A stretch of 64,000 nucleotides of DNA, taken from Candidatus Poribacteria bacterium (lineage in GTDB: Bacteria; Poribacteria; WGA-4E; WGA-3G). The position numbers and the translations under genes are program-made. A model generated the notes under the pieces. That model was not told the DNA's origin. It did no database searches and was given only the letters and a program-made list of their open reading frames with translations. Location of the stretch: the NCBI GenBank assembly GCA_965197475.1, contig CBDANF010000002.1, positions 224,001-288,000 on the forward strand, read 5' to 3'. Positions 40,765-56,048 of this stretch are shown here, piece by piece. Position 1 is the stretch's first letter. Every line of letters starts with the position of its first letter.

Positions 40765-40819
40765 GATTTTAATCTCCTTTGGAGTTAGAGGGGACAGGGT
40801 CCCCTCGTTGTCAGAGTTG

Positions 40820-41194
40820 TTATAAGTATTCGGGGATTACTTCTGACACGCTGGTTATTGCTACAGCAATAGATAGTTCACTCTTTAAGCTCCATGTCGA
40901 GCATATAAGTGAGACAACAATCATACGTAAACCAAAAGGTTCAGATGGTTCACCAAGAGTTGCTGTATGCAAAATGCATTCGGTAAATTTATCGCGCTTT
41001 TCATTGGGCACACCAAAGGTGAGAGCAAACCCTCTAATAATCGTTTCATACAATTGCTTTTTGGGAGTATCAGAAGGGTTTAGATCACGCAAGGTTTCAT
41101 AATGTGTCAATGCAAGACGAGGGAATTCCCTTATAAGCCACTTATCTCTATCTTTGTGTTTCCTGCGTTCTTTCCAATCTGAAAACAAAGACAT
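40820..41194 (-). CDS. Hypothetical passenger protein
   Basis: AAGGAG RBS upstream; 124 aa; inside the IS1595 ends. Confidence 0.55.
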   Translation of the reverse strand: MSLFSDWKERRKHKDRDKWLIREFPRLALTHYETLRDLNPSDTPKKQLYETIIRGFALTFGVPNEKRDKFTECILHTATLGEPSEPFGLRMIVVSLICSTWSLKSELSIAVAITSVSEVIPEYL

Positions 41195-41480
41195 AATAGT
41201 CTCCTTGTGTAAAAGGGAGTGGTTTCAGCGATGTAATAAGCTAAATGCAAAGCGATTATTATGTCGCTGATTCTATAAATATGATGTTAACTGTTTGGTT
41301 CACGAGAACTATACACACGAAACTTTCCAATGTTACTTGGTTATGGTAGAGACCGCGCCTTGCGACGCGGGTAACATTCTCTACCAAAGTTTTCGTGATG
41401 TTAATAGGATACTATACTGGCAGGATTTTGTCAAGTAAAAAATTTGAGAAAAATTTTCAAGTCCAAAACTACTCATTGCG

Positions 41481-42303
41481 AAAAGCAATGCGGGATGTAT
41501 GGGAAATCTCTTATCTGAATTCGCAAGCGAAAGAACGCCTTGGCTATCCAACACAGAAGCCACGTGCCCTTTACGAACGCATGGTAAAAGCCTCCAGCAA
41601 CGAAGGCGAAATCGTCCTTGATCCGTTCTGTGGATGTGGCACAACTATTGATGCCGCGCACACCCTCAACCGATATTGGATCGGTATTGAGATAACAATC
41701 CTTGCACTGGACCCGATGCGTGAACGGTTAGCAGATCGACACGGATTAGAACCATCCGTTGACTACCAAATTGAAGGGTATCCGACTAATATGCAGGAAG
41801 TTCACAGGTTGTTGAAAGAAGGTGACAAACGCAAGTATCACGATTTCTCAAATTGGGCGGTAACACGGCTTGGGCTTAAACCGACGAAAGATGTCGACGA
41901 TGGCGGTCTTGACGGTGTCGGACATTTAACGTTATGGGATCCGCAACAGATGAAAGAGTCGGATTCACGTATCCTCGCCGAAGTCAAAGCCGGTAAACCT
42001 ACGATGACACAAGTACGTGCCTTCTGTCATGTGATGGATCAACACGAAGCGGAGGTCGGCATTTTTATTACTATTGAACCCGTCACCGCGAAAATGCGAC
42101 AAGAGGCACAGAATATGGGTACTTTTGAGCACAACAATAAAACCTACCCTCGCCTTCAGTTCTGGCAAATAGATGATACCTACTTTGAGAACCCGGATAT
42201 TATCAATACCCTCGTCCGGTTACCAGATGCATGGCGGATTCGTCCAACCCAAAAATCTGAACGTCACTTTGACGACCAACAGCTGCAATTACTGCGCGGG
42301 TAG
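41481..42303 (+). pseudogene. 5'-truncated N4/N6 DNA methyltransferase with C-terminal Mrr-like restriction domain
   Basis: 'DVWEI...GYPTQKP...LDPFCGCGTT' and C-terminal 'DGGLDG...EVKAG'; the catalytic DPPY-type N-terminal part is missing; homology begins at the IS right end. Confidence 0.8.
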
Positions 42304-42383: not shown

Positions 42384-42412
42384 TTGACAATAATTGTCAA
42401 ATTTGGTACACT
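42384..42412 (+). promoter_or_regulatory. Sigma70 promoter with a perfect palindrome over the -35 box
   Basis: TTGACA-17 bp-TACACT; TTGACAAT-A-ATTGTCAA at 42384-42400. Confidence 0.7.
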
Positions 42413-42447
42413 AAAAGAAGCGAAATAAATATGAATCGGGGAATTAT

Positions 42448-45400
42448 ATGAGAATTCGGAATTATATCATAGTCCATCTATTGGTTTTTCTGGGTTTCGT
42501 CTCATTCGGTTACGCAGCAGATGGCGAAAAAAAGTTAGGGCTGTCAGAGGCTGCTATTCAAATCCGAGATGAACTCTCCATTAGAAACATTCGGAAAGAC
42601 CTTGCACGATTATCAAGTCTTGAAAGCCGTGTCACCGGTTATCCACAAGCAGCAAATGGAAGCAAATATATTTTTGACCGTTTCGTTGAAATGGGATTGA
42701 AGAATGTCGAAAGCCGTGAATTTACAGTCACAGTCCCCGTCGATCATGGTGATAGTGCTATTGACATCCTTTCCGGTGATGGCACGGTGCTACGCACATT
42801 CCCGCTCAAAGCGTTGTGGCCAAACCTTGTCCGAACGTCCCTCCTTGCCGATGGTGTCAAACATACCGTTGAAGCCGGTGAAACCCTCGGAAAAATTGCA
42901 GAGAACTATGCTGTCTCCTTGACAGACATCGCAGAAAACCCGCATAACCAACATCTTCCTACACCTGTTGTGGAGGGAAACACTGTCTTTATTCCAACCG
43001 GCGGTCTCACCGGTCCGTTGCTTTATGGCGACGATGCGCAACTTGCCGATTTCAACGGACGGAACGTCGGTGGTTTTTGGTATCCGCTCCAAGAAGGCGA
43101 TACACTTGTTGCCCTCGCGAGACGTTATCGCGTTACGCAAGCAAGCATAACGGATGATGTTCTCAACGGACACCTCCAGAAAGCTTCTGATGGCATTGAT
43201 AACAATGAAGATGGCACCGTTGACGAATACGGTGAAATACCGCTGTTATCAGAAATTCTTGGCTGGGCAACTGACGGTATTGATAACGATTCTGATGGTT
43301 GGACAGACGAAGTTCCTGGCGATGCCACAGATGGCATTGATAACAACAAGGACGGTCGGATTGACGAAACAGGCGAATTTATTGCATCAAGCGAATCCGA
43401 TATTTTTATCCCCAAGGGCGCAATCATCCTCATTGAGTTTAACTCAGGCACTCGCTGGATCAATGCCGCAATGCTCGGTGCATCCGCGGTCATCTTTATA
43501 GAACCTGAAACGACGATCCGAGGTGAAGCAGAGAACAAGTTCCTCACCGTTCCGGCAAATATTCCCCGGTTTTGGGTTTCCAAAGCAGACGCAGCCGAAT
43601 TGAAGAATCGCCTTGCCACAGGCGAAAACGTGGATGTCCGTTTGCGTGGTAAAATGAAATGGGATCGGCGCGTCGGTCAGAACATTCGCGGGTTTTTAGA
43701 GGGTGGCGATCCTGTCCTGCGCGATGAACTGGTCGTGCTTACCGCCTACTATGATTCAATGTCTGTTGTGCCAGCAATCGCCCCCGGTGCTGATCCAACC
43801 TGTGGAATTGCTGTCCTCATGGAACTTGCACACTTGTTTGGACAACCCCAGTATCGTCCTGGTCGTTCTGTCCTATTTGTTGCTGTTGATGCACATTTTC
43901 AAGGCTTAACCGGAATGCGTGCGTTTATGGAAGGTATTGGACAAGACATTGTCGGTTCTGCAACCGATTCCCCCGGAACGCCTACTTTGCACGGGTTAAG
44001 AAGGGGATTATCTAATGATATTATAGAATTTGAAGAATTGGGACGTAAACTTTTGCTCTCCATTGATCGGAGTATTTTGGTTGACCTTGACGCGGATTTC
44101 TATCACGGTGTGCATGGCGTAAAGGGAGACCTTAAATCGCTTGCCACAACGTTAACAGGACTCTCTACAACCCGTTCTCAAATTGATTCGCTACACAGAG
44201 CGCAACGGGATTTCTCAGAACGACAGAAAAAAGATGCGGATCGCAACCGAAAACGCGAAAAACAGGGATTTACAGAAGAAGAGAAATCAAGGCTCAATGC
44301 CAATCTCGTCCGTTTTGAGAAGGAAGCACTCCAAACCACACACTTCCTCCGAGAGATCGTTAAACGGCTTGCACAGATTCGGACATCCGCCTTGGAAACA
44401 AGCAGGGAAGCACAGCGAGAACTCATTGATACCATCGCCCTACCTATTGCACGATTAGACACATGGGCAATCAATAAACTTGCGCGCGAACTTGAAGCAG
44501 ATGAAATAGGCGACCAATACGGCACGCATCCAAATTCATCCTATCTGTTGCCAGTGAGGGACGGAGCTGATTACAGTGTGCCAATGCCCGACGATCTGCC
44601 CTCAGAATTGGTTGCTGACATTGAGCAACTCAACAACACCCTTGCCAATTGGGAAATGAGTGATCTACGGAAGTTTGCGTTAATGTGGACACCGGATAAG
44701 ATACTCGATCGGCATTTGGATCTGCCATCTCTCAAACGGGCGAGGAACGCACGTAAAATCCTGGCAAAGACGACCGAATCAAAGGAAGCAGTCATATCGC
44801 AAGAGCGAGCATTTCTACAGAAAATTCATGAAAACCTCAAGGACAGCACATCCATCGAAAATCAGATTAAAGCTGCTATCACGAAATTGGGCGATGACCG
44901 TGAACACGATATACCCCCCGAAATACGGTCCCAGTATCTCACAGTTACATCCCAAGGACGGATTGATAGGATCAATGCGCAACTGCGGCAACGTTTGACC
45001 GAAGCAGCTGCAGCGTCTGATGCGAGTGAAAATACAGATGGCTTAATTAAGGATTTGGCGCGCGATAAGCAGGGCATTTTTGAAATTGCTATGCGGAATG
45101 CTCGTTTAGAACGAGAACGTATCCAAAACCTCCTCGATTCCCACGCCACCCTTACACGCGAATATCTTGATGAGGAATTGTTGATTCTAAGTAGTTATTT
45201 GTCCAGTGAAGAGGTTGAGCAAGCAAAAGAGGCACGTAAACGCGTCGCCGCCTATTTAATTGAGGCACAAGTTCTACAGGTTGTAAAACAGAATGCTGCT
45301 GCAGACGTGGTTGCTCTCAATAATTTCATCAAACAACTCCCATCGCTCACCACAGACTTAGATGCACAGACAAAGGTGCTTCTTCGAGACAATATGCTTA

Positions 45401-48400
45401 CCTTAAGGAACGCTCGATTCCGAAACATTCAGAGCAGAATTGAGAAAATGGCGCGCATTAGCGGAATAGAATATAATCGCAAACTCGCACAGATTGAAGC
45501 TGCAGTGGCACTACAAGACCTTTTCAACCGCTACTATACCTCCCTTTTCTGTAGTATTGACCTCTCTTCTCAATCAAATCAGTTCGGTGTATTTAACAAA
45601 GGGTGGTTCTATGACCAAGAACCAGAATTTGTATTACGCAGAGAATTCGCAAGCATCGGAAATAAACTTGCAGCTTATGCGGCAGATGCCGATTTCGGTG
45701 TCCGTGTCAGAAAATTATGGCGGGCAACAGATGATCAGATTCGCCAAGCGGTTATGGCACGGCAGTGGTCGGTGGCAAGTCAGATTTCCGATAAGGCTGA
45801 CCTTGAAGGGAAAACGCTTGAAACTTTGCTCAGCGCGCACTATGGAAAACTCACCGGTTTAGGTGGTGTCAGTCGCCTCATGAAGATGCAGTTTGAGCAG
45901 TGGCGGAACCGGGGCGAACCTTCTGAAGATATGCTCAAGGATATGGACTACATCCGCAAAGAGGTGGAACGGTTTATCCGAAACGATGTCCGTAGTGCAA
46001 AGAAAAATCGGAAGAACAGTATCCGCATGCGCGAGAAGTTAGATGCGATGCTCATACTCCGACACGAAGACCCGGATGCCTTCACAGAAGAAGAGATAGA
46101 GGACATAAAAACATTGATCTCAATTGTCGGACTTGGCGGCGGTTCAAACTTTGTTAATGCCATCTCTGCCAGTGGTGGGAAGACTTGGAAAACCTATATT
46201 CCCGGAAAAATTGCCTTTGACAGCGAAGTCGCAACACTTGTTGGTAAAACAGGTATCGCCTTTGCAACTATTGAGGACGCACGTGTCCTCACCGACACAC
46301 CGCTTGATACGATTGACCGTGTTGACCTGCGCGAAGATGGCAACCTACACCAGCAAGCGAAAACATTAGCATCGCTACTGATACAAGCACTACGCGACCC
46401 GCAGATGCCAACTGCAGCGAGGGTCGGAAACTTCTATTGCAACCTTTTCGGTGACGTTGTTGAATTCGATGCTCGCGAATCTGCACTACCAAATAAACCT
46501 GTTCCATACCCGATTCTGACGCTCCGCCGTAAACACAAGACGATGATGGGGGTGCGCGGTGACCTATTTGCCATGGGTGATAACAAGGGTAATTTTGAAG
46601 TCGCTGGGTTGGCAATGGAAGGAAGAGCGACCCGCCGACTCGGAGGGGCACAGGAAGTTGAGGCATACATCCTTGACCCTGATTCTGGGGATATTGTGTA
46701 CGCGCCTGATCTTGGGAATTACGGTGCCAAACTTCTGCCAAATAAAGTGCGGATCAACACACGGCGGCGTGGATGTCGGGTTGTCACCTTTCCCTGCGTG
46801 TCTACCACTATCTACGACTTGGTTGACCAACGTTATCTCCGAACTTTACGCGAATTAGAGGTATATGATGCGCTATCCGATAGTCCGCCAGAAAAATTCG
46901 GAATGTCTAAACCGTGGCAGCAGGAAGGTGTGTCCGCAGCTGAACCTATTGCGCTCGTCTATAGCGAACCCAATACCCGTATTAAAATCGGCATGGCTTA
47001 TGGGCAGATCGGTAAACGTTTGCTCCTGATTAAAGCAACTAAAAGCGGTATGAAAAATCCGATTCTTTATACTGGTGAAGGGTTTGTCGTGCGCGAAAAC
47101 GGTAGCATCCGCCTTACGCCGTATGTTGTTGTGCGTGATATGTGGTGGCTTGATGAAAACCGATCTCGACTTTACAAACGGTTCGGTATTTCCAGTGACC
47201 GTCTTGATAAATTACACCAATTTGCGAATGAATATCTCACACGTGCAGAAACCGCACTTTTCCAAAACGATTACCAACAGGCACTGAAGTTGGCACGCGC
47301 TGCATGGGGGTATGAATCACGCGCCTATCCGGATGTTAAAAGAACAGGCAACGATGTCGTTAATGGCATTATGTTTTACCTTGCGCTCTTGATGCCGTTT
47401 GCATACTTTATGGAACGCCTCATATTCGGGTTTCCTAACATTAACAAACAGATTTTAGCCACTTTTGGTATCTTCCTTCTCGTTTTTTACTTCTTGAGTC
47501 AGGTTCACCCGGCATTTCAGATAACGACAACACCCATAATCATCTTAATTGCATTCGTTGTTCTTGCTTTGACAGTAATTGTTATCAGTATCATTGTGAG
47601 GAAATTTGAGGAACAACTTGAGAAAATTCGACAGCAAGGCAATAAGGTGTATAAGGCAGATGTCGGTAGGTTGAGTGCAAGTGCTGCGGCATTTAGCCTC
47701 GGTATATCCAATATGCGGAAACGGAAAGGACGCACCATCCTTACCTGTGCAACGTTGGTTATCCTCACGTTCACTGTCATTTCGTTTACGTCGGTGCGGA
47801 CATTTTTGCGTCCTAACCGAACAAGCCTGCCACAGGTTACACCGCGTTATACCGGTTTGCTCATCCGAGATCAGTATTGGCGTCCTCTTGAAGAACCTGT
47901 GTTGAACTCGATCCTGAACGACATGCAGAAGACGCAAATTACTGTTGATGACTTGGAACGGCTTCTGCGACAGAAGAACGAACTTCTGGCAAAGCGGGGG
48001 CAAACGCAGTTAGATATTTCTGAGGCAATTGCTGGACTGCAGGAAAATGGGTTTATCCAAAATATGGATGAAGTACCGGTCCTCGCCGTTCAGAACGTTG
48101 TCGCGCCACGCGCTTGGTATCAGTCTTCAGGAACAGGCGATCAATCCTTTGTGCAATTAACCCGTAGTCCAAACGCGCAAGACCCCGTACCACCTACAAA
48201 TCCACTCACAGGTGAAGCGTTGAAGTTTGCGGCAAACATGCTTGTCGGGATGAGTGAGGCGGAACCCACGGTCACAGGTATTGATAGATATCTGCAGTAC
48301 GGAAAATGGTTCGACCGCGCCGACGCTGCCAATTGGCCAACTGAGTGGCCCTACGCTATCGTGCTTCCGAAAGGGATGGGAGATCTCTTGAAAATTACTG

Positions 48401-49719
48401 AGAGCGACATGGGGAAAGCGACAATCTCTGTATACGGGGCTGACTTCACCGTCGTTGGTGTTTTAGGAATAGGATTCAAGGACCTGACCGATAATGATGG
48501 TGAAGAAATGACACCTGTGGATTATCAATTGATGCAACAGCAACAAAGCCGTGGCGGCACAGGCGATGAAACCCTTGAGGGGGAACTTCAGAAATATCTT
48601 CATCTCACCCCAGATAGTATTGCCGTTTTGCCCTATGAAGTCGTTATGAACCAAGGTGGAACGTTGAGAAGTGTCGCAGTAAATATGGATTCTCAAGACG
48701 ACGATCCGAAGTTACTCGGTGCAATTGATAAGCTGGATCTCATCATGGCACCACTGATGAATCGCATCGCGCTTGATTTCTTTGTCGGGCGGGACAAAGA
48801 CACCTATCTTTATAGTAGTATCGGCATGACAAGTTTTAGCGGGATGGGTAACCTATTCGTTCCGATTCTGATTGCTGCGTTAATTGTCTTAAATACCATG
48901 CTCGGTGCGGTTTATGAACGCGTACGCGAAATCAGCATCTACAGTTCCGTAGGACTCGCACCTATCCATATCGCTTTTCTCTTCCTCGCCGAAGCGTGCG
49001 TCTATGCGATTGTTGGAGCTGTCTTAGGCTACCTGATGGGGCAGGTCATCGCAACAACGTTGGTGCATTTCGGTTGGCTTGCAGGCTTAACGCTAAACTA
49101 TTCTTCAATGTCTACCGTCGTAGCAACAGTTATTGTGATGATTGTCGTGCTGCTCAGTACGCTTTATCCTGCTGTAAAAGCCTCGCGTATGGCAGTGCCG
49201 GATATTGAACGTAAATGGAAGTTGCCCGAACCCGAAGGCGATGTTTGGCACTTCAATTTGCCATTTACCGTCCTTGCAGAAGAATCACTTGGATTGAACG
49301 TCTTTATGCGTGACTACTTTGATGCACATGCCGATGAGTCTGCCAGCGATTTCTATACGGACAATGTTACTTTCAGCACGAAAACCGAAGAGGATTCATA
49401 TCAGATTGGTATGATGGTGTGGTTGGCACCTTACGATTTAGGAGTGAGTCAATCTATCCAATTTGTCACCTCGCCTGTCGGTGGTGAAGAGGAAGACCTT
49501 TACAAAATCACATTAGATGTACACCGTGAAAGCGGAGAGATCGCTTCTTGGAAGCGAGTCAATCGTCGGTTCCTGAATTTGTTGCGAAAGCAGCTGCTGA
49601 TATGGCGAACCTTCAGCGTTGATATTCGCGCAGAATTCCACGAACGTGGTAGAACCGAAAGCACTGATACGTCGGAAGGCACAGTACAATTGGATCCTGT
49701 TGTGGCACTGGCGGATTAG
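42448..49719 (+). CDS. Giant membrane protein: signal peptide, PA/M28-peptidase-like domain with LysM and DGIDNxxDG repeats, helical inserts, FtsX/MacB-like permease
   Basis: LysM-like 'HTVEAGETLGKIAENY' and 'YPLQEGDTLVALARRY'; three DGIDN(N/D)xDG repeats; 'LTAYYDS...APGAD' M28 fold; 'NMRKRKGRTILT' and 'NTMLGAVYERVREISIYSSVGLAP' FtsX-type motifs. Confidence 0.8.
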   Translation: MRIRNYIIVHLLVFLGFVSFGYAADGEKKLGLSEAAIQIRDELSIRNIRKDLARLSSLESRVTGYPQAANGSKYIFDRFVEMGLKNVESREFTVTVPVDHGDSAIDILSGDGTVLRTFPLKALWPNLVRTSLLADGVKHTVEAGETLGKIAENYAVSLTDIAENPHNQHLPTPVVEGNTVFIPTGGLTGPLLYGDDAQLADFNGRNVGGFWYPLQEGDTLVALARRYRVTQASITDDVLNGHLQKASDGIDNNEDGTVDEYGEIPLLSEILGWATDGIDNDSDGWTDEVPGDATDGIDNNKDGRIDETGEFIASSESDIFIPKGAIILIEFNSGTRWINAAMLGASAVIFIEPETTIRGEAENKFLTVPANIPRFWVSKADAAELKNRLATGENVDVRLRGKMKWDRRVGQNIRGFLEGGDPVLRDELVVLTAYYDSMSVVPAIAPGADPTCGIAVLMELAHLFGQPQYRPGRSVLFVAVDAHFQGLTGMRAFMEGIGQDIVGSATDSPGTPTLHGLRRGLSNDIIEFEELGRKLLLSIDRSILVDLDADFYHGVHGVKGDLKSLATTLTGLSTTRSQIDSLHRAQRDFSERQKKDADRNRKREKQGFTEEEKSRLNANLVRFEKEALQTTHFLREIVKRLAQIRTSALETSREAQRELIDTIALPIARLDTWAINKLARELEADEIGDQYGTHPNSSYLLPVRDGADYSVPMPDDLPSELVADIEQLNNTLANWEMSDLRKFALMWTPDKILDRHLDLPSLKRARNARKILAKTTESKEAVISQERAFLQKIHENLKDSTSIENQIKAAITKLGDDREHDIPPEIRSQYLTVTSQGRIDRINAQLRQRLTEAAAASDASENTDGLIKDLARDKQGIFEIAMRNARLERERIQNLLDSHATLTREYLDEELLILSSYLSSEEVEQAKEARKRVAAYLIEAQVLQVVKQNAAADVVALNNFIKQLPSLTTDLDAQTKVLLRDNMLTLRNARFRNIQSRIEKMARISGIEYNRKLAQIEAAVALQDLFNRYYTSLFCSIDLSSQSNQFGVFNKGWFYDQEPEFVLRREFASIGNKLAAYAADADFGVRVRKLWRATDDQIRQAVMARQWSVASQISDKADLEGKTLETLLSAHYGKLTGLGGVSRLMKMQFEQWRNRGEPSEDMLKDMDYIRKEVERFIRNDVRSAKKNRKNSIRMREKLDAMLILRHEDPDAFTEEEIEDIKTLISIVGLGGGSNFVNAISASGGKTWKTYIPGKIAFDSEVATLVGKTGIAFATIEDARVLTDTPLDTIDRVDLREDGNLHQQAKTLASLLIQALRDPQMPTAARVGNFYCNLFGDVVEFDARESALPNKPVPYPILTLRRKHKTMMGVRGDLFAMGDNKGNFEVAGLAMEGRATRRLGGAQEVEAYILDPDSGDIVYAPDLGNYGAKLLPNKVRINTRRRGCRVVTFPCVSTTIYDLVDQRYLRTLRELEVYDALSDSPPEKFGMSKPWQQEGVSAAEPIALVYSEPNTRIKIGMAYGQIGKRLLLIKATKSGMKNPILYTGEGFVVRENGSIRLTPYVVVRDMWWLDENRSRLYKRFGISSDRLDKLHQFANEYLTRAETALFQNDYQQALKLARAAWGYESRAYPDVKRTGNDVVNGIMFYLALLMPFAYFMERLIFGFPNINKQILATFGIFLLVFYFLSQVHPAFQITTTPIIILIAFVVLALTVIVISIIVRKFEEQLEKIRQQGNKVYKADVGRLSASAAAFSLGISNMRKRKGRTILTCATLVILTFTVISFTSVRTFLRPNRTSLPQVTPRYTGLLIRDQYWRPLEEPVLNSILNDMQKTQITVDDLERLLRQKNELLAKRGQTQLDISEAIAGLQENGFIQNMDEVPVLAVQNVVAPRAWYQSSGTGDQSFVQLTRSPNAQDPVPPTNPLTGEALKFAANMLVGMSEAEPTVTGIDRYLQYGKWFDRADAANWPTEWPYAIVLPKGMGDLLKITESDMGKATISVYGADFTVVGVLGIGFKDLTDNDGEEMTPVDYQLMQQQQSRGGTGDETLEGELQKYLHLTPDSIAVLPYEVVMNQGGTLRSVAVNMDSQDDDPKLLGAIDKLDLIMAPLMNRIALDFFVGRDKDTYLYSSIGMTSFSGMGNLFVPILIAALIVLNTMLGAVYERVREISIYSSVGLAPIHIAFLFLAEACVYAIVGAVLGYLMGQVIATTLVHFGWLAGLTLNYSSMSTVVATVIVMIVVLLSTLYPAVKASRMAVPDIERKWKLPEPEGDVWHFNLPFTVLAEESLGLNVFMRDYFDAHADESASDFYTDNVTFSTKTEEDSYQIGMMVWLAPYDLGVSQSIQFVTSPVGGEEEDLYKITLDVHRESGEIASWKRVNRRFLNLLRKQLLIWRTFSVDIRAEFHERGRTESTDTSEGTVQLDPVVALAD

Positions 49720-49753
49720 ACACATCACTATCTTACGGACAAGGGAATAGTAC

Positions 49754-49945
49754 ATGGAAAAATTAGCAAGTTTTATCATTATCATTGGAACTGTCCTATG
49801 GTTAGTCAGCATTCTGTTTTTGGGAGGGCGTTGGCAGTGGCAGATGTTCGCTGCGCTTGTTTTGATCATTGGGATATTTACCGCTCATTTTTGGGAAGAA
49901 CTCAGCGAAGGAAAGAACAAAAATACACCGAAAGATGATAATTGA
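49754..49945 (+). CDS. Small two-TM membrane protein
   Basis: Two hydrophobic helices; co-oriented within the cluster. Confidence 0.6.
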   Translation: MEKLASFIIIIGTVLWLVSILFLGGRWQWQMFAALVLIIGIFTAHFWEELSEGKNKNTPKDDN

Positions 49946-50025
49946 ATGGCTCTCGACTCTCGGAGTTTGTAGCACACACGTTTACATTTTACCACAAAAG
50001 TTCTTTGTTGATTATTGAGAGTTGA

Positions 50026-52041
50026 TTGTCAACACAAAGGAGAATATTCAATTTGGCGAGAGAGAGAATCTCACAAGCAGATGAATGGCAATCTTGGGCA
50101 CAACGCTACGACATAGAAGGCGGCGTACGAACCTTTGAATCGGGATTAACCGTCAAAGTGTTCTTCGGCGCACTCTTTGTCGGGTTGCTGATGATGCCCG
50201 GTTCCATCTATCTGAGTTATGTATCTGGTCAGTCCGGTGCAGCTGCTGCCCCTTGGGTTGCAGTTATCCTGTTTACCGAATTAGCTAGACGTTCCTTCAC
50301 CACGGCACGTCGTCAAGAACTCTATATGCTCCTCAGTCTCACTGGGGCAGCAGTCGGCAGTGGTATGCAATATCGGAATTTTATCTGGTATGCCTATTTT
50401 GTAAACACGCCGCAAGCCGTTTCTTATGAAATTGCCGACAAGATCCCCGCATGGGTTGTTCCCGCGGGTGATTCTGCTGGGGTACTGACGAGGAGTTTGT
50501 TACATTCCGATTGGTTATTACCTATCGGTGTCTACCTTGCAACTAAACTTCTCGGCACGTTGCGTTTTGTCAGCGGTCAATATATCCTCTTTAGGCTTAC
50601 CGCAGATCTCGAACGACTCCCTTATCCGATGGCACCGATTACTGCGCAAGGTGCAACTGCCTTAGCCGAGACAACCGGTAAACAGGAAACATGGCGATGG
50701 CAAGTGTTCTCTATCGGATCTATGGCAGGCTTAATATGGGGATTCATCTATATCGGTGTTCCTGCGCTCACTGGAGTGATGATGAGCCAACCGATCCAGA
50801 TTCTGCAGATACCGTGGATAGACTTTACGCAAAGTATTGAAGGATTCGCACCGACAGGGGTTTTCGCGCTCCGGACAGATTTCGGGCAGATGCTCTTCGG
50901 ATTTGTCTTGCCGTTCCCAGTGGTCATGTCGGAGTTTGTCGCAGCGATGCTATCGCAATTCGTTTTGAATCCGCAAATCCTCTACAGATACGAGATTTTA
51001 CATCAATGGGAGCCTGGACTTGATGTACGCGCGACAGGACTTTTCAACAATCTTGATTTCTGGATGAGTTACGGCATGGGTAAAACGTTTAGCCTTGGTC
51101 TTGTTGGCATGGCAGCCTCTATCCCGATGCTTTTCAAACTTCGCAGTACCCAGAAAAAGGCGGGACAACGGGGTTCACTTGCCACACCACCGAACCGTGG
51201 TGATTTTCCATTATGGCTTATGGGAATACTATGGCTCATCGGTATGGCGGGCTTTGTCTGGCTCATCCATTGGATGGTTCCGAATTTCCCGCTTAGTTTC
51301 CTACTTGGGTTCGCGTTTATATATACACCGGTGAATTCCTATATCACCGCAAGGACGTTCGGCGTACTCGGACGTGATCTATTTGAAATACCTTATTTAC
51401 ATGAGATCACCTTTATTCTCAGTCGGTACGAGGAAATTGATATCTGGTTTGCACCGCTACCTGACGAAGATTACGGACAAGGCACACAGGGGTGGCGCGT
51501 GCTTGAACTTACGGGAACAACTTTTACATCAAACCTCGCTGCTACACTGCTGATTATGCCTATCCTGATTGTCAGTGGAATTGTGGTACAACACTTTATC
51601 TGGCAAATAGCCCCAATACCGAGCGCACAATATCCGTTTGTTCAGATGATGTGGCCTATTAACGCAACAAACGAATGTCTCATGAAAACATCACTACGCG
51701 ATGGGAATAGTGAAATGCTTCAAGCCATCCGGGGTGATTATGTCGCAGCAGGATTTACCTCAAGTCTTGCTATCTATGGGCTGCTTTGGGTGTTTAAATA
51801 CCCATCAATGTGGTTTTACGGTATCATCGGTGGAATCGGTGCGGATCCGGGCAGCATGGTTGCGCGGTTACTCGGTGCCGTCATCGGTAGATTCTATATG
51901 ATTAAGCGGTTCGGTTTGAAAAGGTGGTTTATGTTCAATCCGGTACTGGCAGCAGGTTTTGCTTGCGGCGTTGGACTGATCGGGATGGGTACTGTTGCAA
52001 TTGCCCTTGTATCCAAAGCCGTTATTGTTAAACCGTTTTAG
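50026..52041 (+). CDS. Polytopic membrane protein, OPT oligopeptide-transporter-like
   Basis: Many TM segments; 'ERLPYPMAPITAQGATAL' resembles the OPT 'L.fP' motif; exact start uncertain (TTG 50026 or 50053). Confidence 0.65.
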   Translation: MSTQRRIFNLARERISQADEWQSWAQRYDIEGGVRTFESGLTVKVFFGALFVGLLMMPGSIYLSYVSGQSGAAAAPWVAVILFTELARRSFTTARRQELYMLLSLTGAAVGSGMQYRNFIWYAYFVNTPQAVSYEIADKIPAWVVPAGDSAGVLTRSLLHSDWLLPIGVYLATKLLGTLRFVSGQYILFRLTADLERLPYPMAPITAQGATALAETTGKQETWRWQVFSIGSMAGLIWGFIYIGVPALTGVMMSQPIQILQIPWIDFTQSIEGFAPTGVFALRTDFGQMLFGFVLPFPVVMSEFVAAMLSQFVLNPQILYRYEILHQWEPGLDVRATGLFNNLDFWMSYGMGKTFSLGLVGMAASIPMLFKLRSTQKKAGQRGSLATPPNRGDFPLWLMGILWLIGMAGFVWLIHWMVPNFPLSFLLGFAFIYTPVNSYITARTFGVLGRDLFEIPYLHEITFILSRYEEIDIWFAPLPDEDYGQGTQGWRVLELTGTTFTSNLAATLLIMPILIVSGIVVQHFIWQIAPIPSAQYPFVQMMWPINATNECLMKTSLRDGNSEMLQAIRGDYVAAGFTSSLAIYGLLWVFKYPSMWFYGIIGGIGADPGSMVARLLGAVIGRFYMIKRFGLKRWFMFNPVLAAGFACGVGLIGMGTVAIALVSKAVIVKPF

Positions 52042-52070
52042 GCAGAGTTCTTTCGTGGTAGGAAAGAGAT

Positions 52071-53018
52071 ATGGACTGGAATCTTTTTGGTTGGGCAGGC
52101 ATTCAGTTAAAGATTCCGACAACTTGGGAAATCAGCGGCATCAGTGGCGATGAAAAGAATGGCTACCTTCGGTTAGATGACGCAGAGATGCCTCGCTTAG
52201 AACTCAAATGGGCAAAGGCACGGAAGAAGAAACCTGACCTACACAAAACACTTGACGAATACTTCAAGTTAGTCCGTAAAAACTACAAACGCGGTGGCAA
52301 TGTCTCATTTCGTAGAAACGTTGACCTTATTAAAGACGAGGATTTCTTAAAAGGCAGCACAGTTCTTGGGTTTAGTTGGAAGGGGGGTATCCGCGCAAAC
52401 GGGTTGATTGTGCATAATCCCGACACCAAACGGATTACCATCGTACAAATCATGGGGAGGCTTAAAGAAAACTGGCGTCCTACGGTGCTCCGCATCTTCC
52501 AATCCATTTCAGACCAAGCAGACCCGCAGCACACCGTCTGGAGTGCGTACGGTCTTAGGCTTGCTGTTCCGACAAATTACAAGTTAGAAAGCCAAAAACT
52601 TCTCAGCGGGTATCTGTTGTTTGCATTTACCAGAGGGAAAAGTCGTAAAATTAGTGTTGAACGTTACGGCCCTGCTGAGGTCTTATTGAACGTATTCAGT
52701 TCGGAACCGAATCCTTTAGAGACTTGGTTTCGGGCACGATATGCAAAAGCGATTCGTGGTTATGGGTTTGAAGTCACTCCACATCACGAAAACGGAGATG
52801 AACGCATAAATTTTGTCGGACAACAGACCCGACTTTACGATAGTGTGCCACTTGGATCTGTGTTGGTACTTGATAAACTCCGAAAACGGACAAGACTTAC
52901 GTTTTTTATATGGCACTGCCATCATACCAATCGTATCTATGTAGTGCAATCGATTGGACGCCACGAAACCTCCGAGAAACTTGCACAAGAGGTCGCAAAA
53001 AGTATCCACTGTCACTGA
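52071..53018 (+). CDS. Hypothetical soluble protein with two internal repeats
   Basis: Halves begin 'FGWAGIQLKIPTTWEI' and 'WSAYGLRLAVPTNYKL'; ends with 'CH'. Confidence 0.7.
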   Translation: MDWNLFGWAGIQLKIPTTWEISGISGDEKNGYLRLDDAEMPRLELKWAKARKKKPDLHKTLDEYFKLVRKNYKRGGNVSFRRNVDLIKDEDFLKGSTVLGFSWKGGIRANGLIVHNPDTKRITIVQIMGRLKENWRPTVLRIFQSISDQADPQHTVWSAYGLRLAVPTNYKLESQKLLSGYLLFAFTRGKSRKISVERYGPAEVLLNVFSSEPNPLETWFRARYAKAIRGYGFEVTPHHENGDERINFVGQQTRLYDSVPLGSVLVLDKLRKRTRLTFFIWHCHHTNRIYVVQSIGRHETSEKLAQEVAKSIHCH

Positions 53019-53072
53019 ATCTGAAGTAGTCAAACAATTAAAATCTACTATAACGTGAGTTTGACAAATATC

Positions 53073-53159
53073 GTAGGTTGGGTAGAACAACGTGAAACCC
53101 AACTATTTTCAAACCACAATGGTTGAGTTGTTAGGTTTCGCAAGCTCTATCCAACCTAC
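53073..53159. repeat. REP doublet (REPIN-like), family B
   Basis: gtaggttgggtagaac...gtgaaacccaac / gttaggtttcgcaagctctatccaacctac inverted pair. Confidence 0.75.
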
Positions 53160-53198
53160 ATCTGAGGTAGTAGAACATTCAAATTCTACTTATAAAAC

Positions 53199-53663
53199 AT
53201 GCTTAACAAAGTTTTATACGCGTTTAAACTGAAAAAACGACCTGATGTGGATAGAGGTAAGGTCCTCAAAGCATTCCCGTTACGGCATCAGTTGATAACG
53301 TGGGAATTAGACGACAAGGGGGAAGCATCACTCGTCATTCCGCAGAAAGACAAATTCTGGGTGAGATTTACAAGTAAAATCTTTATGCTCCCAAATAAAC
53401 GGGTTGTTGTGTTGGATAGCATCGGTGCGTACGTATGGCAGATGTGTGATGGGAAGCACACCATATCACAGATTATCAAGGCACTCCAGAAAAAACACCA
53501 GTTGACTCGAAAAGAAGCAGAAACTTCGCTCTTTACCTTTGTACAGCAACTCGGAAAACGAAATTTCATCCAATTTGCTATCCCGACAGAAGCTAAACCG
53601 AATGAAAATGCACCTCAGAAACCGGAGCAAAAAAGGCGTTTTGGGTTTTTATCTAAAGGGTAA
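53199..53663 (+). CDS. PqqD-like (RiPP recognition element-like) protein
   Basis: 'LDSIGAYVWQMCDGKHTISQIIKALQKKH...SLFTFVQQLGKRNFI' fits the PqqD winged-helix pattern. Confidence 0.8.
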   Translation: MLNKVLYAFKLKKRPDVDRGKVLKAFPLRHQLITWELDDKGEASLVIPQKDKFWVRFTSKIFMLPNKRVVVLDSIGAYVWQMCDGKHTISQIIKALQKKHQLTRKEAETSLFTFVQQLGKRNFIQFAIPTEAKPNENAPQKPEQKRRFGFLSKG

Positions 53664-53696
53664 GTGGCAGTTTGACAGCAAAAGGAGAAAACAGAT

Positions 53697-54503
53697 ATGC
53701 AAACAGAAATGGGTGGCGTACAACCAAATCTCGCCGAAACCCCGAAGCGATCCCAACGCATCCTTCCGAAAGAGAACACTGTCCGTGTCAGAAACCTCAT
53801 AAAACGCTATGAAATGGGGACAGCGACAGTGGATGCACTACGCGGCGTTAATTTCCAAATTCAACGCGGCGAATACATCTCTATTATGGGTCCCTCTGGC
53901 TCCGGAAAATCTACACTCTTTAATATGATTGGCGGATTAGACAAACCGACAGAGGGCAGGGTCTATATTGACGAAGTAGATATTGCGCAACTTGACGCTT
54001 ACGAGTTAGCGTGGCTGCGTTGTCGGAAAATCGGTTACATCTTTCAATCGTTCAACTTGATCCCTGTTATGACAGCACTTGAGAATGTCTCGCTTCCGAT
54101 GATTTTTGCTGGTATGAGTGCTGATGAGAGTCGGGAAAAAGGTGTAGACCTACTCTCTCTTGTGGGATTAGGGGACCGTGTCCAGCATAAGCCGCTTGAA
54201 CTCTCTGGTGGACAGCAGCAGCGTGTTGCAATTGCCCGTTCCCTTGCCAACGACCCCGCCATTGTACTCGCTGACGAACCGACCGGAAACTTGGATACCA
54301 AAACGGGGCTTGAAATCATAGATTTGCTGCGCCGACTCAATGACGAAAACGGCGTAACCATTATTACCGCAACACACGACCACAAGATGCTTGATGTCTC
54401 AGATCGGATTTTCCACATGGTAGATGGTAAAGTTGACAAAATTGAGTCGCGTGATGAAATTGACCTTCACGTCGGAAAATTGGACGGTCAGGAAGTCGGA
54501 TAA
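53697..54503 (+). CDS. ABC transporter ATP-binding protein (LolD/MacB type)
   Basis: GPSGSGKST, LSGGQQQRVAIAR, LADEPTGNLD, ATHD. Confidence 0.95.
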   Translation: MQTEMGGVQPNLAETPKRSQRILPKENTVRVRNLIKRYEMGTATVDALRGVNFQIQRGEYISIMGPSGSGKSTLFNMIGGLDKPTEGRVYIDEVDIAQLDAYELAWLRCRKIGYIFQSFNLIPVMTALENVSLPMIFAGMSADESREKGVDLLSLVGLGDRVQHKPLELSGGQQQRVAIARSLANDPAIVLADEPTGNLDTKTGLEIIDLLRRLNDENGVTIITATHDHKMLDVSDRIFHMVDGKVDKIESRDEIDLHVGKLDGQEVG

Positions 54504-54580: not shown

Positions 54581-55582
54581 ATGCTCAAAAAGTTGATAAC
54601 TTACTGTCTGTTATTGTGCTTACCGAGTGTCGCTGCCGCCAAAATCGTGTTCCTCTCAAAACGCGATGGGGGCAGCAATATCTATGTGATGGATGATGAC
54701 GGCAGCAATGTTCAAAGACTCACCTTCACACAATTTCCTCAAGTCGATGGGGGACCTGTATGGTCCCCCGATGGCACACGCATTGCGTTTGAGAGAGATA
54801 CAGATACGGGTAAGCCTAAGACAAATCAAAAGTATGATATATTCCTGATGGATGTGGATGGTAGCAATGTGCAGCAGCTCACAGACGATCGCGCGCTGGA
54901 TGGGGGATGTACGTGGTCACCGGATGGGGGCCGCATCGCTTTTACCAGTACTCGGAACAAGGGGTTTGATATCTATGTGATGGATATTTTAACCCGAGAA
55001 GTTGAGCAACTGACGCACAACCCAGGGAATAGAGATTGGGCTAAGAAACCCTCCTGGTCGCCCAATGGCAAACATATTGCCTACGAACAGGCACTCTTCG
55101 GAGGCTTCTTAAATGCGGGGACAACGATCTACGTGATGAATGCGGATGGCAACGGGGCAAAAGAACTTGTTCGCTCTGATAATGATTGGGCACGTGCGTC
55201 ACCCCGCTGGTCACCCGATAGCAAATCTATTTTGTACTCCGAGTCACGCTATGCGTTAGTCGGAAAGATTACGAAGTGGGTTGCCAGCAATGTGGTGATT
55301 CAGCGGAACGGTAGCAAAGTGCACAGGATTTTAAATACCCCGAAAAAGTGGTTAGTCAATTCTGTGTGTTGGATGGATAACGGGAAATAGGTGCTGATTG
55401 CCGCACAGGATGCCCAAGGTGAGCAGATTGACATTTACCGGTATCACCTCGTTACCGGACAGATAACCAACCTTACAAACCATCCAGCACTTGACAACTC
55501 AATGAATTGGATCAGTGATGATGTGCTGTCTGTAACACCACGCGGGAAAATAAGCCTAATATGGGGAACACTCAAAAAGTGA
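54581..55582 (+). pseudogene. TolB-like PD40 propeller protein with a premature in-frame TAG at 55388-55390
   Basis: Signal peptide and WSPDG repeats; the frame continues after TAG with another PD40 blade and the C-terminal motif SVTPRGKISLIWGTLKK. Confidence 0.8.
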
Positions 55583-55667
55583 AACTCGCCAAATGCCATA
55601 AGCGTATTTGAAGTTGATTCCGCGTATTCTGCCACGCACATTTGGCGTTGATTTGCCAAAACCGAAT

Positions 55668-55954
55668 TATACTAAATTAACCCAATTTGTAGCGTGAGGT
55701 CTCTGGGTTCTCCTCGCAATGCTGACTTTATCAGAAAAATACTAATCAAGTTAATTTGGTATTATACGCAATTAACGCGATTTGTAGCGCGAGGTCTCCG
55801 TGCCTCGCAATGTTAACCGCTATTAGAAAACTTCCGCTCATGTAAAAGGTGTGTGCGGTTATTTTCATGAAGGCAATGGCCACACGGGTTAAATTTTCAT
55901 TTGCACTCATTCTTTACATGAGCCAAAACTTCTAATCCCGTTAATTTGGTATTA
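55668..55954. repeat. Two adjacent MITE-like elements, each carrying a family A REP
   Basis: Ends tatactaaattaac / gttaatttggtatta (55668-55764) and tatacgcaattaacg / cgttaatttggtatta (55763-55954); internal tgtagcg(t/c)gaggtctc...cctcgcaatg in both. Confidence 0.65.
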
Positions 55955-56048
55955 GAAGAAAGGCAAGTAACGGTATAGTTGCCTGCCTTTCTTTATTATT
56001 TTGCGTGCGTTCAACCGCTATGCAAATTTCGTAGGTAAAAACGCTTCC

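Follow-up and report, generated by a model that had tools for sequence, protein, structure and literature searches.

Gene content of the locus

The window (the whole stretch of DNA analysed, 64,000 nucleotides) contains six open reading frames, g1 to g6, which lie in the same orientation on the + strand between positions 42448 and 54503, are separated by gaps of 29–180 nt, and have the sizes and domains given in a preliminary description of the locus (Table 1). The host, a member of the Poribacteria, is a sponge symbiont. The TolB-like neighbour gene g7 was excluded from the system. The promoter-like site upstream of g1, previously called strong, is indeed a consensus match and the top + strand site between 41800 and 56200, but the region has 12 such sites versus 20.5 ± 5.2 in shuffles; it is plausibly a promoter. 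Contigs from two sponge RNA libraries map to g1, g2, g3 and g4, and one crosses the g1/g2 junction without mismatch. They give a hint of expression, as the libraries may contain DNA and the contigs cannot show one transcript.

Table 1. Features of the g1–g6 locus (positions in the window)
Feature	Position	Strand	Basis
Promoter-like site TTGACA-17-TACACT, TG extension	42384-42412	+	Consensus match; 36 nt upstream of g1 start
g1, giant permease, 2423 aa	42448-49719	+	ORF; Pfam, structure-profile matches, hydropathy, alignment
g1 aa 3-21, N-terminal hydrophobic segment (signal peptide or anchor)	42454-42510	+	Hydropathy scan
g1 aa 125-320, Poribacteria-only insert	42820-43407	+	Pfam/NCBIfam, alignment
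g1 aa 322-495, PA and N-terminal half of M28 aminopeptidase-like domain	43411-43932	+	Pfam; orthologue head model
g1 aa 500-1200, charged helix-favouring insert splitting M28-like domain	43945-46047	+	Alignment, composition
g1 aa 1201-1636, conserved rest of head	46048-47355	+	Alignment; orthologue head model
g1 aa 1637-1715, three extra TM segments between head and permease module	47356-47592	+	Hydropathy scan
g1 aa 1763-2239, MacB/LolC-type permease	47734-49164	+	Pfam, NCBIfam, structure-profile matches, hydropathy
g1 aa 2250-2423, C-terminal cytoplasmic domain	49195-49716	+	Alignment; conserved in all phyla
g2, 63-aa protein, two hydrophobic segments	49754-49945	+	ORF, hydropathy
g3, 671-aa polytopic membrane protein	50026-52041	+	ORF, homologue searches
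g4, 315-aa cytoplasmic protein, two PsbP/Mog1-like domains	52071-53018	+	ORF, structure model
g5, 154-aa PqqD/RRE-type protein	53199-53663	+	Pfam, NCBIfam
g6, 268-aa LolD/MacB/FtsE-type ABC ATPase	53697-54503	+	Pfam, NCBIfam

The g1 protein runs from an N-terminal anchor through an outer head and three extra transmembrane segments (TMs) to a MacB/FtsX-type four-TM permease and a C-terminal cytoplasmic domain. Pfam matches above the cut-offs were found for FtsX (aa 2138-2248, 44.3 bits versus 25.5), Peptidase_M28 (aa 412-495, 34 bits versus 21.3, profile positions 1-78 of 193 only) and LysM (aa 139-163, 32 bits versus 20.9, profile positions 1-25 of 43), while PA (aa 322-385) scored 17.7 bits, under its cut-off of 23.9. 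Orthologues in other phyla are shorter, at 1460-1880 aa. The Poribacteria-only insert, which carries the LysM, a second LysM-like stretch and three DGIDNxxDGxxDE acidic repeats, has just 0-28 per 50 residues aligned in 12 non-Poribacteria orthologues. The second, charged insert is mostly Poribacteria-specific, with aa ~1000-1100 partly shared; E, K, R, Q, D, L and A make up 58% of residues 501-1000 and P and G 6%, and heptad-like windows reach 21% there and 16% in 1001-1100, versus 0-7% elsewhere. Neither the LysM nor the long helical insert occurs in the 12 aligned orthologues outside Poribacteria; the binding of peptidoglycan or GlcNAc polymers, named earlier as a property of LysM, therefore cannot be the core function.

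In the conserved rest of the head, the M28-like domain is completed by its C-terminal half, which carries the DTPLDT motif, and is joined by beta-rich domains and a membrane-proximal three-helix bundle. Hydropathy scans found the extra-TM pattern also in orthologues L064, L057 and L062, and two such segments in L049. In the permease, a 355-aa outer domain separates TM1 from TM2-4, which make up the FtsX domain; the match to LolC (7arh) has an E value of 1e-8, and MacB (5lil), YtrF (9o9x) and LolF (9w35) were also matched. The C-terminal domain matched the three giants of genome G005 with E values from 6e-38 to 4e-46; its Atlas search gave no usable match.

Among the smaller genes, g2 is limited to its own branch of Poribacteria (41/43 close loci, 0/4 distant Poribacteria, 0/30 loci of other phyla). 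Neither g3 nor g4 has any family match in Pfam or NCBIfam. The true start of g3, which is single copy in its genome, is probably near codon 10. The g3 family carries the label "peptide transporter", and the earlier term "OPT-like" holds for g3 indirectly: the g3 of the window has no PF03169 (OPT) match, and its profile found nothing in the PDB, whereas one of 15 aligned family members matches PF03169 (E 5.8e-4) and OPT is annotated on 15-33% of the members of the nearest Atlas clusters. DUF6784/6785 Atlas clusters score 0.87-0.88 against g3, and hhalign with DUF6785 gave a probability of 9.6% (E 0.0034), the two being colinear with a common E-[RK]-L-P/x-[FY]-P motif. By these comparisons g3 appears to be a distant OPT-superfamily relative, a placement with only indirect support, and DUF6785 proteins are its distant look-alikes.

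No hydrophobic segment was found in g4 by hydropathy scan. Its model (pLDDT 87.4) has two PsbP/Mog1-like domains, and its whole-length matches are Tli4/TplEi. The earlier assignments of g5 and g6 were both borne out. The g5 protein scored 45.9 bits against PqqD (PF05402, cut-off 23.4), with ScmD, PqqD and the lasso-peptide B1 type as closest NCBIfam families, all equivalog scores lying under the cut-offs. Unlike known PqqD/RiPP recognition elements, g5 has no radical SAM enzyme, cyclase, protease or precursor gene nearby; as noted before, Pfam domains and flanking genes revealed no radical SAM or other RiPP enzyme in the cluster or flanks. The g6 protein matched ABC_tran (Pfam, E 6e-35) and is nearest to LolD in NCBIfam (236.7 bits, under the equivalog cut-off of 307.75), with the exporter ATPases DarD and DevA also among the near matches.

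The outer head of g1

The head of an orthologue was modelled with a pLDDT of 94.5 and a pTM of 0.93, and the model matches PA-containing M28 aminopeptidases (2ek8, E 2e-26; BSAP; PaAP), GCPII and the transferrin receptor. Sequence matches of the head likewise include GCPII/III, nicalin (6w6l, E 2e-3) and the transferrin receptor. Judged from the orthologue's model, the outer head of g1 has a PA/M28 aminopeptidase fold, a fold it has in common with the active members GCPII, PaAP and BSAP. The M28-like domain reported earlier stands as a fold, with changed metal and catalytic residues: against 1amp and 2anp, the histidine of HxD is replaced by Y and the EE pair by HF. Among 56 family members, Y is found in 43, H in 55, F in 29, and D220 and D404 in 55 each; the replacing residues (YYD, PGAE, GHF, LDLS, DTPLD) are 77-98% conserved, except for the F of GHF (52%). 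In the alignment, therefore, the usual zinc and catalytic residues are swapped for a different, strongly conserved set, and this conservation suggests that the pocket is probably functional. Loss of the canonical catalytic residues in a PA and M28 fold is shared with the receptors of this class (transferrin receptor, nicastrin, nicalin), but here the replacing residues are themselves conserved and the domain forms one chain with an ABC permease.

Synteny and composition of the motor

Genomic comparison found a giant immediately upstream of g3 at 41/43 close and 4/4 distant Poribacteria loci and at 20/30 loci of other phyla. Same-strand adjacency of the two occurs in Poribacteria, Armatimonadota, Planctomycetota, Omnitrophota, Desantisbacteria and Abditibacterium, with protein identities of ~40%, and in metagenome loci collected with the small FtsX as seed, g3 follows 12 of 12 full-length giants. 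The g4, g5 and g6-type ATPase genes either accompany the giant and g3 or make up a separate operon. Complete operons in the order giant-g3-g4-g5-smallFtsX-ATPase are present in metagenome loci L158, L192 and L198, and the same order is found in Armatimonadota (L062, L065, L076, L077). Among 34 genome loci, the g1 and g3 families are the only ones present in at least 9. Fused forms of the components were looked for and none was found.

These data make it very probable that g1 to g6 form most of one conserved membrane machine, shared across many bacterial phyla, and we infer that its parts assemble physically. It would be highly improbable that an ABC system and an unrelated peptide transporter are chance neighbours in some lineages: although eight judgeable loci have g3 with no giant inside 10 kb, and the DUF6785 genes of the host genome are solitary among unrelated genes, the adjacency is kept across phyla at the identities above and in all the full-length metagenomic giants, and the five genomes with no giant beside g3 have giants elsewhere (and g4 in four of the five).

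The six genes, earlier taken as the whole system, are an incomplete set. Elsewhere the genome encodes, side by side, a 230-aa "headless" FtsX and a second ATPase; the small FtsX lies within the operon in other phyla, and the operons of other lineages often include DUF6785 proteins. Giant g1 and the headless FtsX are probably the two dissimilar permeases of the motor; in the host genome, g1 would pair with the unlinked small FtsX, as synteny elsewhere suggests. There is good support for an architecture in which a type VII (MacB/Lol/FtsX-type) ABC motor is combined with an OPT-superfamily protein and cytoplasmic partners, very likely the tandem PsbP-like g4 and the PqqD/RRE-type g5. We know of no OPT protein that works with an ABC motor.

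Two unlike FtsX-type permeases with a LolD-type ATPase recall LolCDE, and LolC and LolD are the best matches of the g1 permease and g6. However, the equivalog scores are far under the cut-offs (33 bits versus 473 for LolC, 237 versus 308 for LolD), one permease is headless while the other has a ~1600-aa head, three extra TMs and the C-terminal cytoplasmic domain, a LolA-like partner is lacking, and the genome encodes a separate pair of LolC/E-like proteins. The g1 permease is of MacB type, with four TMs and a large TM1-TM2 loop, as in MacAB-TolC and YbbAP-TesA, but here the ATPase is a separate gene and the neighbourhoods share no recurring membrane-fusion protein, TolC or TesA-like hydrolase. 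The cluster matched no characterised transporter, NCBIfam equivalog scores all being far under the cut-offs, and a literature search found no description of such a system. The machine is thus undescribed and uncharacterised, as first proposed for an envelope system that combines a MacB/FtsX-type permease with a LolD-like ATPase, and its genes do co-occur across phyla.

The host genome has one giant, one g3, one small FtsX and 12-14 scattered, solitary DUF6785 genes, of which two follow sulfatase genes. In genome G005, just one g4-g5-smallFtsX-ATPase operon was found together with three giants located elsewhere, two of which adjoin DUF6785 genes. One motor operon with several giants and OPT-fold genes resembles ECF transporters in genome organisation only; there is no sequence or fold relation, and the giants would share the motor.

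Possible function

Our best guess, a tentative one, is that the machine captures an oligomeric, peptide-like substrate and takes it up; we infer both the direction and the nature of the cargo. The ATPases would bind and hydrolyse ATP and so move the stalk helices of the permeases, as in MacB, LolCDE and FtsEX, and this motion would be transmitted to the outer domain and the tethered head. The aminopeptidase-like pocket could then grip the free end of the substrate and pass it to the OPT-fold protein, which would move it inwards across the membrane. At the cytoplasmic face, g4 and g5 may serve as acceptor or regulator; the RRE, for example, may bind the incoming peptide or a subunit tail and tune the ATPase. 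OPT-family carriers are importers and aminopeptidase-type pockets bind free peptide ends, which both count in favour, and the many DUF6785 paralogues look like a nutrient-uptake repertoire. On the other hand, OPT carriers need no ATP motor, and g3 has the weak link to DUF6785 and lacks the PF03169 and PDB matches. To our knowledge no characterised type VII ABC system imports, all of them extracting, expelling or passing force outwards, and a member that imports would therefore be without precedent.

The 34 genome and 35 metagenome loci contain no recurring membrane-fusion, TolC-like, LolA-like, precursor-peptide or modifying-enzyme gene, and the lack of a shared membrane-fusion/TolC-type partner or precursor peptide was counted for uptake. 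The same result argues against an exporter or extractor, which we consider unlikely. In such a system the PqqD/RRE and PsbP-like proteins would bind a cytoplasmic peptide or protein tail and feed it to an OPT-fold channel, or the type VII permease would pull out membrane-embedded cargo (a lipoprotein, lipopeptide or lipid), and the outer head would receive, trim or hand on the cargo. RRE domains usually bring leader peptides to their partner enzymes, and PsbP/DUF1795-type folds, the fold seen in the g4 model, act as protein-binding adaptors. The exporter ATPases close to g6 also fit, but g2 is lineage-restricted and the known direction of OPT carriers is inward. Among type VII systems, LolCDE, MacB and YbbAP-TesA extract or expel, according to the abstracts of two reports (PMC8333309, PMC12646458), which favours export.

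That characterised type VII systems all act outwards on the envelope also suits an envelope-remodelling mechanotransducer like FtsEX with EnvC, PcsB, CwlO or RipC, which we regard as possible though rather doubtful. Here cytoplasmic ATP hydrolysis would move the fused head, which would bind the wall or surface layer and trigger, or itself perform, cleavage of peptides in the wall or at the surface; the freed (muro)peptides would be recycled by the OPT-fold protein, and g4 and g5 would be cofactors like SweC/SweD of B. subtilis FtsEX-CwlO. A coiled coil and degenerate peptidase joined to FtsX is a recurring design, and FtsEX resembles the present system in coupling an ATP-driven FtsX-type permease to an outer helical segment and degenerate peptidase, with small accessory proteins; Poribacteria g1 fuses LysM and the long helical insert to the remodelled peptidase domain. 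However, these two elements are absent from the aligned orthologues outside Poribacteria and so cannot be what defines the core function; the peptidase-like part is of M28/PA type rather than LytM, CHAP or NlpC/P60 and is fused to the permease, and the OPT-fold, PqqD and PsbP-like proteins have no counterpart in FtsEX. Besides its LolC/E-like pair, the genome also encodes a distinct full-length FtsX-like protein (E 6e-32 across positions 2-292 of 292), and three giants per one motor, as in some genomes, would be odd for a division or wall machine. The gene g4 is present in single copy in 119 of 121 Poribacteria genomes, as expected for housekeeping, so that a housekeeping envelope role fits this distribution at least as well as the nutrient uptake we tentatively favour.

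The gene cluster and its flanks

An ORF check returned the six co-oriented genes of the preliminary description at exactly the same positions, all on the forward strand. They encode a giant permease (g1), a small protein (g2), a polytopic protein (g3), a PsbP-like protein (g4), a PqqD/RRE protein (g5; RRE, RiPP recognition element) and a LolD-type ATPase (g6). The strong promoter claimed ahead of them is a good consensus match, but the region holds no excess of such sites, and we refer to it as a promoter-like site.

Features of the gene cluster and its surroundings (window positions) and layout of the g1 product (aa positions)
Feature	Position	Strand	Description
IS1595-family transposase	39448-40329
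Fused remnant	41395-42303		DNA methylase C-terminus and Mrr-like nuclease domain
Promoter-like site	42384-42412
g1	42448-49719	+	2423 aa
g2	49754-49945	+	63 aa
g3	50026-52041	+	671 aa
g4	52071-53018	+	315 aa
g5	53199-53663	+	154 aa
g6	53697-54503	+	268 aa
g7	54581-55390		TolB-like propeller
Repeat spacer	55640-55960		between g7 and aminotransferase gene
g1 product	aa 3-21		N-terminal anchor
g1 product	aa 22-1636		outer head
g1 product	aa 1637-1715		three TMs
g1 product	aa 1716-1762		cytoplasmic linker
g1 product	aa 1763-1781		MacB-type TM1
g1 product	aa 1782-2136		355-aa outer domain between TM1 and TM2
g1 product	aa 2137-2239		TM2-4
g1 product	aa 2250-2423		cytoplasmic domain, kept in every phylum

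The flanking genes are unrelated to the cluster: LeuRS, PhoX, the IS1595 transposase and the methylase/Mrr remnant are found upstream, and g7, an aminotransferase and a metallo-beta-lactamase-fold protein downstream. The transposase gene and the remnant, together at 39448-42303, directly precede the promoter-like site. The closest database relatives carry the name Candidatus Poribacteria. Membership of g7 in the system was rejected: a DNA contig and an RNA-library contig of relatives run from 54503 straight to 56049, the DNA contig with 8 other letters in between. These contigs skip both g7 and the repeat-rich spacer; therefore the system ends at g6, and g7 with the spacer is an insertion/deletion difference between relatives. 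The spacer itself holds two or three units of a short dispersed repeat of ~95 nt, which was found at 44 other places in the genome with 76-100% identity (from 219 first-look candidates) and reached a depth of ~35,000 in one DNA run, versus 20-170 nearby. It looks like a MITE/REP-like element.

Contigs of two sponge RNA libraries cover parts of g1, g2, g3 and g4; one crosses the g1/g2 junction with zero mismatches and another, from a relative, covers g2 and g3. This is weak evidence for expression, because contigs of this kind could stem from DNA and do not prove that the genes share one transcript. No contig of the libraries X1 and X2 fell on 41534-42067, 45272-45805 or 54884-55417, uncovered stretches that prove nothing on operon boundaries.

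A type VII ABC motor

Type VII ABC systems (MacB, LolCDE, FtsEX, YbbAP) are the textbook examples of how force from ATP is passed across the inner membrane, and few of them are understood. The cluster encodes a motor of this type, as seen from its permease domain, topology and ATPase. The g1 product contains an FtsX domain (PF02687, 44.3 bits at aa 2138-2248; cut-off, 25.5), and its layout, obtained from a crude hydropathy scan and alignment with 14 orthologues, has the four TMs and the large extracytoplasmic domain between TM1 and TM2 of such permeases. The alignment with MacB (5lil) spans aa 2062-2248; the MacB periplasmic core family gave no Pfam match in g1, and the nearest NCBIfam models, LolC/MacB, stay far below their equivalog cut-offs. 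An Atlas search with the C-terminal domain gave a best score of 0.88, with families too inconsistent to be of use. The assignment of g6 as a LolD/MacB-type ATPase was confirmed by Pfam ABC_tran and by its nearest NCBIfam model, LolD (TIGR02211, 236.7 bits); YbbA, DarD, DevA, MacB and FtsE are also near, and all lie far below equivalog cut-offs.

Similarity to LolCDE was below equivalog level (LolC 33.4 bits versus 473, lolCE 20.3 versus 362, LolD 236.7 versus 307.75). Besides g1 and g3, no family recurred in at least nine of the 34 more distant loci analysed; thus these hold no LolA-like, membrane-fusion, TolC, precursor or RiPP-enzyme partner. The membrane-fusion and outer-membrane channel partners of MacAB-TolC were also not seen among the neighbouring genes in 35 metagenome loci, which were screened with the system's own proteins. 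FtsX models score 15-21 bits on g1 versus cut-offs of 225-255, and the genome has a separate 290-aa full-length FtsX-like gene, so that g1 is not its only FtsX. The idea that the machine replaces LolCDE or FtsEX was discarded, as both have separate candidates in the genome. With equivalog scores too low and the required partners not found, the cluster does not match a characterised transporter; the motor belongs to the MacB/FtsX superfamily and is distinct from LolCDE, MacAB-TolC and FtsEX.

The partner set of this type VII ABC motor is unprecedented. To our knowledge, an OPT-fold protein, a PqqD/RRE protein outside a RiPP pathway and a tandem PsbP-like protein have never been seen with an ABC motor. 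A full-text search of the literature outside subscription journals returned no paper on this gene combination, DUF6784 or DUF6785. Nothing relevant was retrieved on PqqD with FtsX, on MacB with M28, PA domain and permease, or on FtsX with peptidase M28; what was retrieved on Poribacteria and FtsX was unrelated, and among the papers listed on type VII ABC and OPT none concerned an OPT partner, as judged by titles and the beginnings of abstracts.

The outer head and the partner proteins

The head of g1 has a PA/M28 fold with a remodelled, conserved pocket. Pfam found a Peptidase_M28 match (aa 412-495, 34 bits versus 21.3) that is partial, covering the first 78 of 193 profile positions, and a PA domain below threshold (aa 322-385); sequence matches of the head include leucyl aminopeptidase, GCPII/III, nicalin and transferrin receptor. 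The head of a short orthologue (L064) was modelled over 750 aa from an alignment of 56 sequences (pLDDT 94.5, pTM 0.93). In Foldseek, its first ~440 residues resemble PA-containing M28 aminopeptidases (2ek8, E 1.9e-26; BSAP; PaAP), and GCPII and transferrin receptor are matched as well; in the model, beta-rich domains and then a membrane-adjacent three-helix bundle follow.

Canonical M28 enzymes carry H, D and EE in the N-terminal half and D and H in the C-terminal half. Compared with 1amp/2anp, the His of HxD is replaced by Tyr and Glu-Glu by His-Phe, with the bridging Asp kept. Among the 56 family members, the replaced positions hold Y in 43, E or D in 48, H in 55 and F in 29, and the Asp of LDLS (52/56) and the two Asp of DTPLD (43/56 and 55/56) are conserved too. 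The DTP[LF]D motif occupies what we take to be the position of the M28 His motif, the two C-terminal ligands not being alignable by sequence. Because the metal and catalytic positions are replaced by Tyr and His-Phe, the head is not a canonical di-zinc aminopeptidase; its pocket is nevertheless under selection, and "remodelled" describes it better than dead. At E <= 1e-3 the head family comprises 2424 cluster representatives (clusters at 50% identity), of which 687 remain at E <= 1e-30; most are 1450-1700 aa long and thus fused to the permease.

Orthologues outside Poribacteria are shorter (1460-1880 aa). The 12 that were aligned lack aa ~125-320 of g1, with a LysM match (PF01476, aa 139-163, 32 bits versus 20.9, profile positions 1-25 of 43 only), a second LysM-like stretch and three DGIDNxxDGxxDE repeats. 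They also lack most of aa 500-1000 and 1100-1200; by a crude scan, the insert at 500-1200, which interrupts the M28-like domain, is charged and Pro/Gly-poor with heptad-like stretches. LysM and this helical insert would suit an FtsEX-EnvC-like remodelling device, but their confinement to Poribacteria and the existence of the separate FtsX-like gene speak against it, and we hold such a device to be rather unlikely.

The partners are an OPT-related polytopic protein, a tandem PsbP-like protein and a PqqD protein; among the loci compared, g2 was found in 41 of the 43 close ones and in no others, which limits it to the window's branch of Poribacteria. Neither g3 nor g4 has a Pfam domain. The OPT likeness claimed for g3 is indirect, by way of its relatives: part of the content of its nearest Atlas clusters is OPT, clusters of archaeal DUF6784/6785 reach 0.87-0.88, and one of 15 aligned relatives matches PF03169 (E 5.8e-4), but the window's g3 itself has no such match at E <= 1. 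Some sources label the relatives (879 among 8000 candidates scored) "peptide transporter", and a few have precomputed OPT hits. The g3 profile gave 0 matches among PDB sequences at E <= 1, and neither did PF03169 match anywhere in the window's genome (92.7% complete) at this threshold. In the same genome, DUF6785 (PF20581, E <= 1) gave 14 matches at 13 places, g3 not among them: eleven full-length genes (~640-655 aa, 31-41% identical to the first), one gene in two pieces and one truncated. These genes are solitary amid unrelated housekeeping genes with no common neighbours, two of them directly behind sulfatase genes. Alignment of the g3 family with these paralogues by hhalign was colinear over 371 columns at weak significance (probability 9.6%, E 0.0034), and both have an E-[RK]-L-P/x-[FY]-P motif in common. 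At one locus of another Poribacteria genus (L032:7295-11995), two tandem g3 paralogues, 74% and 78% identical to the window's g3, were found, with an extra 243-aa gene without Pfam match between g3 and g4.

The g4 model (pLDDT 87.4, pTM 0.83) has two PsbP/Mog1-like domains; its whole-length structural matches are the tandem proteins Tli4/TplEi (E 7e-6), and single domains match PsbP (2vu4, 4rth; E ~3e-5, probability 1.0). In other groups, g4 orthologues have a CxxC together with two further Cys or His close to the C-terminus, which may form a metal site; the window's g4 has lost the CxxC. In the family's second Poribacteria genus, ~17 genomes have one in-frame TAA in the g4 match, located in a lineage-specific insert between the two PsbP-like domains, and g4 may there be encoded as two single-domain genes.

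The g5 product matches PqqD as claimed (PF05402, aa 63-124, 45.9 bits versus 23.4) and has the conserved motifs P-x-R-N, LD-x-VG and CDG. No longer protein carrying its domain was found, which is weak evidence, and no ORF in the analysed loci combined two system components. The absence of RiPP enzymes also held for cluster and flanks. Unlike RRE domains of RiPP clusters, g5 has no precursor peptide or modifying enzyme near it or recurring in related loci; a lasso or other RiPP cluster was therefore rejected.

Conservation, unlinked motor parts and possible function

A search of species genomes seeded with the g3 alignment gave at least 566 confirmed matches, of which the best 80, at 77 distinct loci, were taken with 10-kb flanks. 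The giant lies directly upstream of g3 on the same strand in 41 of 43 close Poribacteria loci, with g4, g5 and g6 downstream in 42, 42 and 40; all four are in place in the 4 distant Poribacteria loci (4/4 each). The giant-g3 order is kept in 20 of 30 loci of other phyla (Planctomycetota/Brocadiia, Armatimonadota, Omnitrophota, Desantisbacteria, Zipacnadia, Abditibacterium), with g4, g5 and g6 downstream in 7, 4 and 4; two of the ten without upstream giant are uninformative, as less than 3 kb of DNA is available ahead of g3. Five genomes with an incomplete window order were searched, two without giant and three without g4 beside g3: all five carry a giant, the first two with three each elsewhere, and g4 is present in 4/5. 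Evidently, the parts are inherited jointly across phyla, and a chance neighbourhood is very improbable. In one close relative (L001:8286-10001), g2 and g3 are ~1.5 kb apart, possibly through an insertion, so that g3 does not directly follow the giant.

Armatimonadota loci read giant-g3-g4-g5-FtsX-ATPase, the FtsX being small (~203-280 aa). Small FtsX and ATPase stand upstream of the giant at two other-phylum loci, accompanied by g4 and g5 at one (L056) and without them at the other (L060). A 46%-identical orthologue of the Armatimonadota small FtsX is encoded on another contig of the window's genome (G000:C3:412705-413373); it has 230 aa, an FtsX domain (L087:9703-10395, E 5e-15), ~25-45 residues between TM1 and TM2, and a second ABC ATPase behind it. 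Metagenome contigs were seeded with the small FtsX, and in the 35 loci of >=9 kb the ATPase follows it in 33, with giant (14), g3 (13), g5 (13), g4 (10) and DUF6785 (7) within 10 kb; g3 follows 12/12 full-length giants. Complete operons are arranged in more than one way: giant-g3-g4-g5-smallFtsX-ATPase, g4-g5-smallFtsX-ATPase-giant-g3 and smallFtsX-ATPase-giant-DUF6785-g3. Another genome, the complete chromosome G005, has one g4-g5-smallFtsX-ATPase operon and three giants elsewhere, two of them beside DUF6785 genes; its single ATPase resembles g6 more than it does the second ATPase of the window's genome, which has one giant and one g3.

We infer that the parts assemble into one complex. As a tentative reading, which we prefer, the head would capture an oligomeric, peptide-like substrate and pass it on to be taken up by the OPT-fold carrier; force or gating would come from the motor, and g4 and g5 may serve as cytoplasmic acceptor or regulator. 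Uptake is preferred because OPT carriers are importers, because the head pocket is of aminopeptidase type, because neither export partners nor cargo genes recur in the neighbourhoods, and because one motor with many modules, together with the dispersed DUF6785 paralogues, resembles a repertoire for nutrient uptake. Against uptake, OPT carriers can work without an ATP motor, and we know of no type VII system that imports. An exporter or extractor would have the RRE as cargo adaptor; given the empty neighbourhoods we think it improbable. Near-universal single-copy conservation counts against uptake and fits the housekeeping envelope role of a remodelling device: g4 is present in 119 of 121 Poribacteria genomes sampled and in 19/19 genera, almost always in one copy.

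A bolder form of the uptake reading, and a speculative one that we would not expect to hold, is a first type VII ABC system driving import, organised in the manner of an ECF transporter. A single motor module common to all (headless FtsX, LolD-like ATPase, PsbP-like and PqqD adaptors) would energise or gate interchangeable substrate modules, namely giant receptor-permeases with a remodelled aminopeptidase pocket and OPT-fold carriers, and the 12-14 solitary DUF6785 genes would supply alternative carriers suited to various oligomers of the sponge matrix.

With 687 head-family clusters and at least 566 g3 matches, the system is a further, widespread branch of type VII ABC systems, occurring in many poorly studied phyla (Armatimonadota, Planctomycetota, Omnitrophota, Latescibacterota-like genomes and others). 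Solving its function would give a role to several uncharacterised protein families and possibly reveal a new route for oligomer uptake or handling at the cell envelope. It would also test if RRE domains act beyond peptide natural products.

The small FtsX and second ATPase of the window's genome (L087, G000:C3:403000-422999) lie between a methyltransferase gene and a GFO/IDH/MocA oxidoreductase gene, near a 1822-aa bacterial alpha-2-macroglobulin and two WD40 proteins of ~970-990 aa, and one copy of the ~95-nt repeat adjoins the small-FtsX gene (C3:412556-412648). At G000:C3:2868902-2869246, well apart from the system, the genome has a further large open frame of 1196 aa that contains an FtsX-type domain.
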